A stretch of 31,502 nucleotides of DNA from a virus (lineage: Duplodnaviria > Heunggongvirae > Uroviricota > Caudoviricetes), in IMG/VR virus record IMGVR_UViG_2531839662_000032; one strand, 5' to 3'. The notes beneath the pieces are model-generated. The model worked only from the letters and a program-made list of their open reading frames with translations. It was not told the DNA's origin and searched no databases. Below are positions 3,720 through 5,458 of the stretch, one piece after another. How positions within the stretch are numbered: the stretch's first letter is position 1; every line of letters starts with the position of its first letter. The position numbers and the translations under genes are program-made.

Positions 3720-3923
3720 ATGGATATTACTGAGTTTCCTTCTGGAGTAATTGAACACCTTGGCTGGTATGTATACCGATTGATTGATCCGAGGGACGGA
3801 AGCACCTTCTATGTAGGGAAAGGCAAAGGTAACCGCGTATTTGCCCATATGCGCGGTGAAGTGGCAGCGACTGATGATGACGAGTTACTGAGCAACAAGC
3901 TAAAGCAAATTAGAGAAATAAGG
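3720..3923 (+). pseudogene. GIY-YIG nuclease domain gene, 5' fragment only (about 68 codons)
   Basis: [29 protein letters not shown] fits the GIY...YIG...R...H signature. The frame becomes nonsense after about codon 68, exactly where tail-fiber homology on the opposite strand ends. No convincing RBS. Confidence 0.5.
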
Positions 3924-5458
3924 TTATCGGGTATATCAGCGCCGTTCTGGTCTTTCTGCAGACGTTTCTCTGCATTGTCATAGGCTGATTTTACTGCCTT
4001 TGGCGTTGCCGCCAGCGTTTCAGACGTACTGTTGGTCGCACTGCTGAGCTGTACTACCCCCTTTTTCGTCGTGCTCGCATCCTCAAGCGCCACGGCGGAT
4101 GCAATATCCTCTGCCCGTTTTGCCGCTGTCTCGGCGCGCGTTGCCGCGGATTCCGCCGTACTTTTGCTCTGTGCTGCCGCCGTCGCACTGCCTGCCGCCT
4201 CTGTTGCTTTCGTGGATGCCGTCGTGGCGCTGCCCTTCGCTGCTGACGCCTGTCTGGTCGCCTCATCTTTTGAAGCAGACGCAGATGATGCCGATGACGC
4301 TGCCGAACTGGCGGACGATGCGGCTGCCGTTTTTGAGGATTCTGCACGGGTTTCCGACGCTTTCGCATTCGTTTCGGATGCCTTCGCTGCGGAAGCAGAC
4401 CTCGCTGCTGCGCTGGCCTGTTCAGTGGCTTCGCCAGCCTTCGTTGTGGCTGTTGAAGCAGACGATGCGGCACTTTCTGCCGATTTTCCGGCGGCGGTGG
4501 CACTGGCTGAGGCCTGCCCGGCACTTGTTGACGCGGCACTGGCAGATAATGCAGCCGCTGTTTTTGAGCCTGCCGCAGCTGAGGCGCTCTGTCCCGCTGC
4601 CGTTTCAGAAGACCTGGCGTTCGTCTCGGACGTTTTTGCCGCCTTCGCAGAATTTGCTGCCGCCGTTGCCGAGGAAGCTGCGCTGCTGGCGCTCGAGGCT
4701 GCGCTCGTTTCTGATGATTTCGCTGCCTCTTTTGAGGCCGCCGCATCCCGGGCTGAGGTGGCAGCTTCTGACGCTTTCGTGGTCGCGGTGGATGCAGAAG
4801 TGGCTGCAGATTTTTGTGACGCTGCAGCATTCGTTTCTGACGTTTTCGCCGCACCAGCACTGGTAGCCGCCGCGCTTTTTGAGGACTCTGCAGCGGCAAC
4901 ACTTTTTGATGCTTCAGTAGCCTTTGTTGATGCCGTTCCTGCGCTGGAAGACGCTGACTGAGCCGACGTCGCGGCCTGCCCGGCTGATGTGCTGGCTGCA
5001 CGTGCTGAGCCTGCAGCATCAGTCGCATGGGTTGCCGCCTCACGGGCTGATGTGCCGGCATCGCTGGCTGACTTCTTCGCGGCTGCCGTGTTCTGTGCCA
5101 CCGCGGACGCGTTACGCGCCACCTCTTCCACCATCAGTTCAAAACGGCGCAGTGCCTCCGGACGGACATCATCCTCCGTCATGGCACCGAGAAAATCATT
5201 CAGCGTACCCGGTTGTGAGTCTTCATACACGGTGATGGTCCCGGCATGCGATGGCGGGAAGCCTTCCACCAACAGAATAACGCTGTACTGACCGTACTCA
5301 ACGTCCATGCTGTAACGCCCGGCTTCATCCGGATTTTCTGAGGCCAGCGTGTTCACCACCACCGTGGTGCTGTTACGTTTTGCTTTCAGCTGGATTGTGC
5401 AGTTCTGTACCGGTTTTCCTGTGCCGTCTTTCAGTACACCTGAAATCTTTACTGCCAT
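3809..5458 (-). pseudogene. stf: Lambdoid side tail fiber gene (stf-like), 3'-truncated; homology ends near 3926
   Basis: N-terminus MAVKISGVLKDGTGKPVQNCTIQLKA plus long Ala/Ser/Thr-rich repeat region and ...[27 protein letters not shown], then 38 unrelated codons before the stop. ATG at 5458 with GGGGTGA RBS. No C-terminal receptor-binding domain or tfa gene. Confidence 0.8.

Follow-up and report, generated by a model that had tools for sequence, protein, structure and literature searches.

The window analysed here, a stretch of DNA of 31,502 nucleotides, opens with the tmRNA gene ssrA at 40-402 on the plus strand, identified by Rfam (RF00023, 295.8 bits), by ARAGORN, and by the RefSeq annotation of E. 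coli UMNF18. The 3' end of ssrA adjoins the integration boundary of a prophage, and homology to the prophage of E. coli A0 34/86 begins at position 375. Two intact genes come next: one for an EcoRII-like type II restriction endonuclease (631-1845, plus strand; RefSeq start at 637) and one for an M.EcoRII-like C5 cytosine methyltransferase (1880-3355, minus strand; RefSeq start at 3313), which PADLOC classified as REase_II and MTase_II, respectively. A 364-bp AT-rich spacer (3356-3719) then separates the methyltransferase gene from the divergent 5' stub of a GIY-YIG nuclease gene (codons 1-69; 3720-3926, plus strand), and this stub abuts the 5' part of the side tail fiber gene stf (codons 1-511; 3927-5458, minus strand). 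Further right lie lom, an intact cargo gene for an Ail/Lom outer-membrane protein (5523-6122, minus strand; Pfam Ail_Lom, E = 5.5e-117), and the tail tip gene J without its 5' end (6192-9525, minus strand), which ends at a second deletion junction.

The endonuclease carries both the EcoRII-N effector and the EcoRII-C catalytic domains (PF09217 and PF09019), as do EcoRII itself and its plasmid copies, and it aligned end to end with the EcoRII structure PDB 1NA6 (401 residues, 808 bits, E = 1.3e-242). The adjacent methyltransferase likewise combines an N-terminal regulatory domain, DNA_meth_N (PF18284), with a C5-MTase domain (PF00145), and the two genes are convergent, as in EcoRII. Plasmid copies of EcoRII share ~80% nucleotide identity with this pair. 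Its high similarity to EcoRII predicts a CCWGG specificity. The region from 3301 to 3750 has a GC content of 0.34-0.35, compared with ~0.6 in stf. Promoter or terminator consensus sequences did not exceed the shuffle expectation in the spacer or at the junction, and an Rfam scan there returned nothing specific.

The GIY-YIG ORF (3720-3983, plus strand, 87 codons) matched the Pfam family LEM-3_GIY-YIG over profile positions 26 to 69 of 151 only. Its frame consists of 69 genuine codons followed by 18 nonsense codons, read antisense to stf, and a stop at 3981-3983. The full-length ancestor in A0 34/86 (locus L003, 4121-4894) encodes 257 aa and is annotated as 'LEM-3-like GIY-YIG'. It matched PADLOC PD-T4-3 over 1-255/256 (E = 7.6e-140) and PDB 9U75 over residues 1-257 (E = 5e-171), and it differs at 7 of 257 residues (97% identity) from the crystallised enzyme CMoRE of E. 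coli O157:H7 (9U75; PMC12923530). CMoRE is a characterised type IV restriction enzyme that degrades the 5hmC or glucosyl-5hmC DNA of T-even phages, and its activity in the native host has been described (bioRxiv 10.1101/2024.12.20.629700).

According to the GIYxY-YIG motif definition and the domain architecture given for CMoRE (PMC12923530), the stub in the window retains the motif tyrosines Y17, Y19, and Y31 as well as the acidic autoinhibitory loop D52-E55 (WYVYRL...FYVGKG...TDDDE). Residues 70-257 are deleted, so that both the remainder of the nuclease domain and the entire C-terminal modification-sensing domain are missing; the window copy thus spans only residues 1-69 of the full-length family and structure and is a pseudogene. 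As the position of the catalytic Glu is not numbered in the text of that paper, only the loss of the remaining nuclease domain and of the sensor is claimed here. Judged from the domain architecture, the stub would be unable to work as an enzyme, and the truncation suggests that the CMoRE defence against T-even phages with hmC or ghmC DNA was lost in this lineage. The exact 87-aa chimeric ORF was not found in the assembly collection, where gene callers probably skip it.

On the opposite strand, the stf ORF (3809-5464, minus strand, 551 codons) overlaps the GIY-YIG ORF tail to tail. It contains a complete phage_tail_N domain (PF08400, residues 1-134, E = 1.8e-72) within 511 genuine codons that end in ...NGADIPD; these are followed by 38 nonsense codons, antisense to the GIY-YIG gene, and a stop at 3809-3811. 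Both ORFs at the junction are already labelled as pseudogenes 'missing C-terminus' in the RefSeq record of UMNF18. The ancestral stf in A0 34/86 encodes 1,133 aa, including the Gp34_trimer (663-762) and Collar (907-954) domains, and the ancestral tfa encodes 194 aa with a Caudo_TAP domain. All three domains, and the whole of tfa, fall in the segment deleted from the window, in which the distal 622 codons of stf, and thereby its trimerisation and receptor-binding part, are gone along with the downstream tfa. The remaining part resembles lambda stf in its N-terminal phage_tail_N domain and in its place after lom and J, and the ancestral tfa shares ~97% DNA identity with lambda tfa; unlike lambda, the window has lost tfa entirely, together with the distal half of stf. 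The stf stub would seem to be a dead gene. In the human faecal strain PRO_A-1462-6M-A_ESBL (NZ_CM136166.1, locus L004, 6594-7291), a ~100% identical prophage carries an IS1 inserted in stf, so that this tail-fibre gene was inactivated there independently.

The A0 34/86 prophage allowed the junction to be mapped precisely. Window 375-3926 corresponds to L003 776-4327, and window 3924-9525 to L003 7415-13016, each with one mismatch by BLASTN, so that identity is 99.97-99.98% on the left and right of the junction; both mismatches lie away from it, the left one at window 3658. The GIY-YIG gene and stf lose homology at one point, 3924-3926, and the flanking segments stand 3,090 bp further apart in A0 34/86 than in the window. 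Overlapping BLASTN segments and a base-by-base comparison revealed that these three bases, TTA, are common to both ancestral breakpoints. TTA is the Leu69 codon of CMoRE, and the deletion fuses this codon to stf codon 511/512. When the two ancestral breakpoints were compared base by base, the microhomology could be extended to six of eight matching bases over TTAnCnGG. The base-by-base comparison with A0 34/86 disclosed no foreign sequence, filler, IS element, or target duplication at the join. The missing parts are GIY-YIG codons 70-257 with their stop (567 bp), a spacer of 69 bp, the whole of tfa (585 bp), and stf codons 512-1133 with their stop (1,870 bp, overlapping tfa by 1 base), and they sum exactly to the distance lost: 567 + 69 + 585 + 1,870 - 1 = 3,090 bp. 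The AT-rich spacer next to the methyltransferase gene was left untouched. The locus thus combines flanks colinear with one undeleted reference, a join without foreign bases, and a short sequence common to both ancestral breakpoints, as in a microhomology deletion.

Much of what an earlier note had read from the letters of this DNA agrees with these data. The sharp junction it placed near 3924-3926, where both genes lose sense, proved exact to the base in the alignment to A0 34/86, and its ...NGADIPD limit for family-typical stf sequence coincides with the point beyond which the frame becomes nonsense. Its figure of about 68 sensible codons for the GIY-YIG gene was correct in substance, with an exact count of 69. 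It had also described an AT-rich region and an EcoRII-type pair on the left, both borne out here by base composition, Pfam, PDB 1NA6, and PADLOC, and had proposed the loss of tfa and of the receptor-binding end of stf, which matches the domains found in the deleted segment. Since the full-length forms have 257 aa and 1,133 aa, the shortness of the two ORFs is not their natural state. The alignment to prophages with intact stf-tfa that it suggested yielded the breakpoint and its TTA microhomology.

To place the junction among other genomes, window 600-9500 was compared by megablast with 5,426 complete E. coli genomes. At least 80% of this interval was covered in one place in 119 of them, and among the matches listed besides UMNF18, 39 of 39 were longer than the window here, by ~2.6-3.9 kb. 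The best match was A0 34/86, with the order R, M, GIY-YIG (257 aa), tfa (194 aa), stf (1,133 aa), lom, and J; strain SA186, which has another stf allele, also carries the undeleted order at this ssrA site. The junction form occurred in a single complete genome (1/5,426), that of the porcine ETEC strain UMNF18. On this comparison of genome sequences, R, M, GIY-YIG, tfa, stf, lom, J is the ancestral and widespread arrangement. Since both truncated genes have full-length, domain-complete relatives and the undeleted order is widespread, the event is a deletion inside an existing arrangement and not a replacement by an incoming cassette. We found nothing about this locus in the literature on UMNF18 prophages.

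The prophage of A0 34/86 (locus L005, 1-12173) lacks the ssrA flank and is instead bordered on the left by a hypothetical gene, an integrase fragment, and a vat toxin island near yagU/ykgJ. Despite this other left flank, homology starts at the same base, window 375, which points to another integration context in A0 34/86 or to a rearrangement there.

The EcoRII-like pair differs from its plasmid relatives in being the cargo of a temperate phage, located beside the attachment site and paired with CMoRE. Plasmid EcoRII systems share only window 569-3396 with this locus, so that their homology stops 530 bp short of the junction on its left side. A further copy was found in NZ_CP081794.1 (locus L012), a 43.7-kb circular record listed as an E. 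coli CT01 plasmid, which encodes capsid, portal, sheath, and baseplate proteins and has the gene order int, dinI, R, M, full GIY-YIG gene, acyltransferase, tfa. This record is a complete myovirus-type phage in which the R-M and CMoRE block is 99% identical and lies between int/dinI and the tail-fibre genes. Its gene order shows that temperate phages carry the R-M pair and the GIY-YIG gene as joint cargo close to the attachment site, and with the block present in this phage, unrelated temperate phages share it for defence. The block was found in none of the sequenced phage records, whose homology begins only at tfa.

When the entire window was aligned with 50 kb of A0 34/86, four further deletion junctions came to light. 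At 9523-9525, 6,705 bp from the 5' end of J through most tail genes have been lost, joining J to the tail tube gene at a TCA microhomology, and at 10745-10748 a loss of 865 bp is accompanied by a GTTT microhomology. A fourth junction at 11508-11541 removed ~8.46 kb with head, terminase, and lysis genes and contains 34 bases unmatched to the reference. A fifth at 12051-12056, less certain, corresponds to a loss of ~5.06 kb with an imperfect, ambiguous overlap of 2-6 nt and flanks 95-98% identical. Altogether ~24 kb of late genes are missing over at least five junctions; the prophage has kept its integrase and its immunity and early region, and as cargo the EcoRII-like R-M pair, lom, and a DarT/NADAR pair. 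At the first three junctions, the sequence on either side is 99.97-100% identical to the intact phage, reaching 100% at 9523-9525 and 10745-10748. By our own calculation for random sequence, an ambiguity of at least 3 nt at a random join has a chance of ~0.05, and three such junctions together a chance of ~1e-4; the microhomologies of 3, 3, and 4 nt at the three junctions therefore argue for microhomology-guided joining. Neither among complete genomes nor among assemblies was one found with only some of the deletions; of the complete genomes, UMNF18 alone had the first or the second junction. The truncated J protein was recovered only from assemblies with the same layout, one with the identical 549-aa stf chimera and the other with the stf span called as fragments.

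Several features lie outside the deleted segments. A DarT ssDNA ADP-ribosyltransferase and a DarT1-associated NADAR antitoxin (RefSeq annotation) are encoded at ~19976-21283 on the minus strand beside the integrase at ~18774-19943 on the plus strand, and their position between the integrase and the far prophage end places defence cargo at both ends of the element. A direct repeat of ~185 bp, 91% identical, occurs at 373-557, starting from the last ssrA bases, and at 21412-21595, just before ypjA; it brackets a prophage remnant of ~21 kb and is probably attachment-site-proximal sequence. In the early region, Rfam identified a C4 antisense RNA (80.7 bits) and isrK (61.2 bits) at 14598-14685 and 14710-14786, respectively, on the minus strand, overlapping an ash-family gene. 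From 29264 to 31502 the window departs from the UMNF18 RefSeq sequence in the middle of tRNA-Ile (ileY), followed by a 425-aa integrase-like ORF at 29460-30737 on the plus strand. ARAGORN detected no intact tRNA at the 29264 divergence point, and the genome from which the window derives seems to carry an island integrated at ileY.

We conclude that 3924-3926 almost certainly marks the place where one internal deletion removed 3,090 bp from a lambdoid prophage at ssrA, presumably by illegitimate recombination as one step in deletional decay. Before the event, the prophage carried EcoRII-like R, M, and PD-T4-3/CMoRE, followed in the opposite orientation by tfa, stf, lom, and J. The joining of CMoRE codon 69 to stf codon 511/512 at TTA would then have come about by illegitimate, RecA-independent recombination, either by replication slippage between short repeats or by microhomology-guided end joining after a double-strand break; the scar fits either route and cannot discriminate between them. 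The loss of 3,090 bp would be one of at least five such events. Against a microhomology mechanism it can be said that three bases are short and that a single junction has a ~5% chance of showing them. Homing or self-cleavage by the GIY-YIG enzyme was considered as the source of a break and rejected, as CMoRE is a modification-dependent restriction enzyme and two junctions 5.6-6.8 kb from the gene display the same short microhomology.

A join of this kind could in principle have been created by assembly, with contig ends from older shotgun data stitched across repeated prophage sequence. UMNF18 is indeed an older WGS-type record with many pseudogenes 'partial in the middle of a contig' in the prophage, and most E. 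coli genomes contain repeats of parts of the stf/tfa segment deleted here. However, the 549-aa chimeric stf product was present on 10 contigs, including GCA_001616175.1 and the Logan assemblies of SRR12505067 and SRR070453, the contig of the former having been seen in 10 samples, and the exact junction 36-mer was found in all loci fetched for this product, across different projects and read sets. Window 1-11458 and GCA_001616175.1 are colinear and differ by a single mismatch, and GCA_000194535.2 has the same gene spacing as the window. The genome from which the window derives is also distinct from the UMNF18 RefSeq sequence, from which it differs at 3658 before diverging completely at 29264. 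Moreover, the join links non-homologous sequences, whereas repeat collapse would link homologous ones. An exact search of JGI metagenome contigs returned 0 matches to the 36-mer. The recurrence of the exact junction in independent assemblies, together with a near-identical reference, indicates that it is not due to chance and makes an assembly artefact very unlikely.

The earlier note had interpreted the junction as the replacement of tfa and the distal stf by an EcoRII-type R-M cassette that had recombined in with a GIY-YIG fragment. Such a replacement would account for the sharp compositional step at the junction, and R-M systems are mobile, with EcoRII homologues on many plasmids. Yet the R-M pair and the full GIY-YIG gene already stand beside intact tfa and stf in the near-identical prophage and in many other genomes, and on the left, colinearity with the intact prophage persists to the very last base ahead of the junction. 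The comparison with plasmid EcoRII copies, also proposed in the note, places the end of homology at ~3396 and not at 3926, so the junction is not an edge of the R-M cassette, and the compositional step reflects AT-rich cargo meeting the GC-rich, Ala-rich repeats of stf. As the window equals the ancestral order minus 3,090 bp, and the presumed passenger of the cassette is PD-T4-3/CMoRE, an independent characterised defence gene, the replacement has hardly any probability left; of the note's overall reading, the truncation and the loss of the receptor-binding end hold, and the replacement falls. We also consider very unlikely, if slightly less so, a two-step or IS-assisted origin, in which an IS1 entered stf and a later deletion took the element with its surroundings. 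The IS1 in PRO_A-1462-6M-A_ESBL does occupy a site within the interval deleted in the window, but no IS sequence or target-site remnant is present at the junction, deletions adjacent to IS1 normally retain the element, and two other junctions have microhomologies of 3-4 nt with no IS nearby. With no trace of an IS and two such IS-free junctions, an IS-mediated route is not needed.

The single internal deletion thus belongs to a familiar process. The cryptic prophages of E. coli K-12 and the defective Sakai prophages exemplify the deletional decay of lambdoid prophages; bacterial genomes show a deletional bias, and both RecA-independent short-homology deletion and alternative end-joining occur in E. 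coli. Like these, the prophage in the window has internal deletions with junction homologies of 3-4 nt, has lost late structural genes while keeping cargo, immunity, and integrase, and contains truncated genes flagged as pseudogenes, with nothing fundamentally different from known decay. Unusually, the surviving tail-end sequence still matches an intact prophage of another strain at 99.97-100% identity, even though no fewer than five deletions have built up. This identity, along with the lack of intermediates among the genomes found, could mean that the five junctions are the footprint of one burst, for example a failed induction or self-inflicted breakage with microhomology end-joining, after which lethal late genes were discarded and selection retained only the cargo for defence and virulence (EcoRII R-M, lom, DarT/NADAR). 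We regard this scenario as speculative and rather unlikely; if it were true, the loss of CMoRE would be collateral damage of a rapid 'domestication'.

All components, and the process itself, are already known, and the locus is a case of ordinary prophage decay. The R-M pair is resident prophage cargo and not a recent invader, while the 87-codon and 549-codon ORFs are chimeric read-throughs of pseudogenes, a point that matters mainly for correct annotation. For the porcine E. coli lineage, the deletion would mean that the CMoRE/PD-T4-3 defence has been lost and the EcoRII-like system kept, which is relevant only to phage-typing or phage therapy. The locus also illustrates cleanly, at base resolution, a series of microhomology deletions in a cryptic prophage that is still young.
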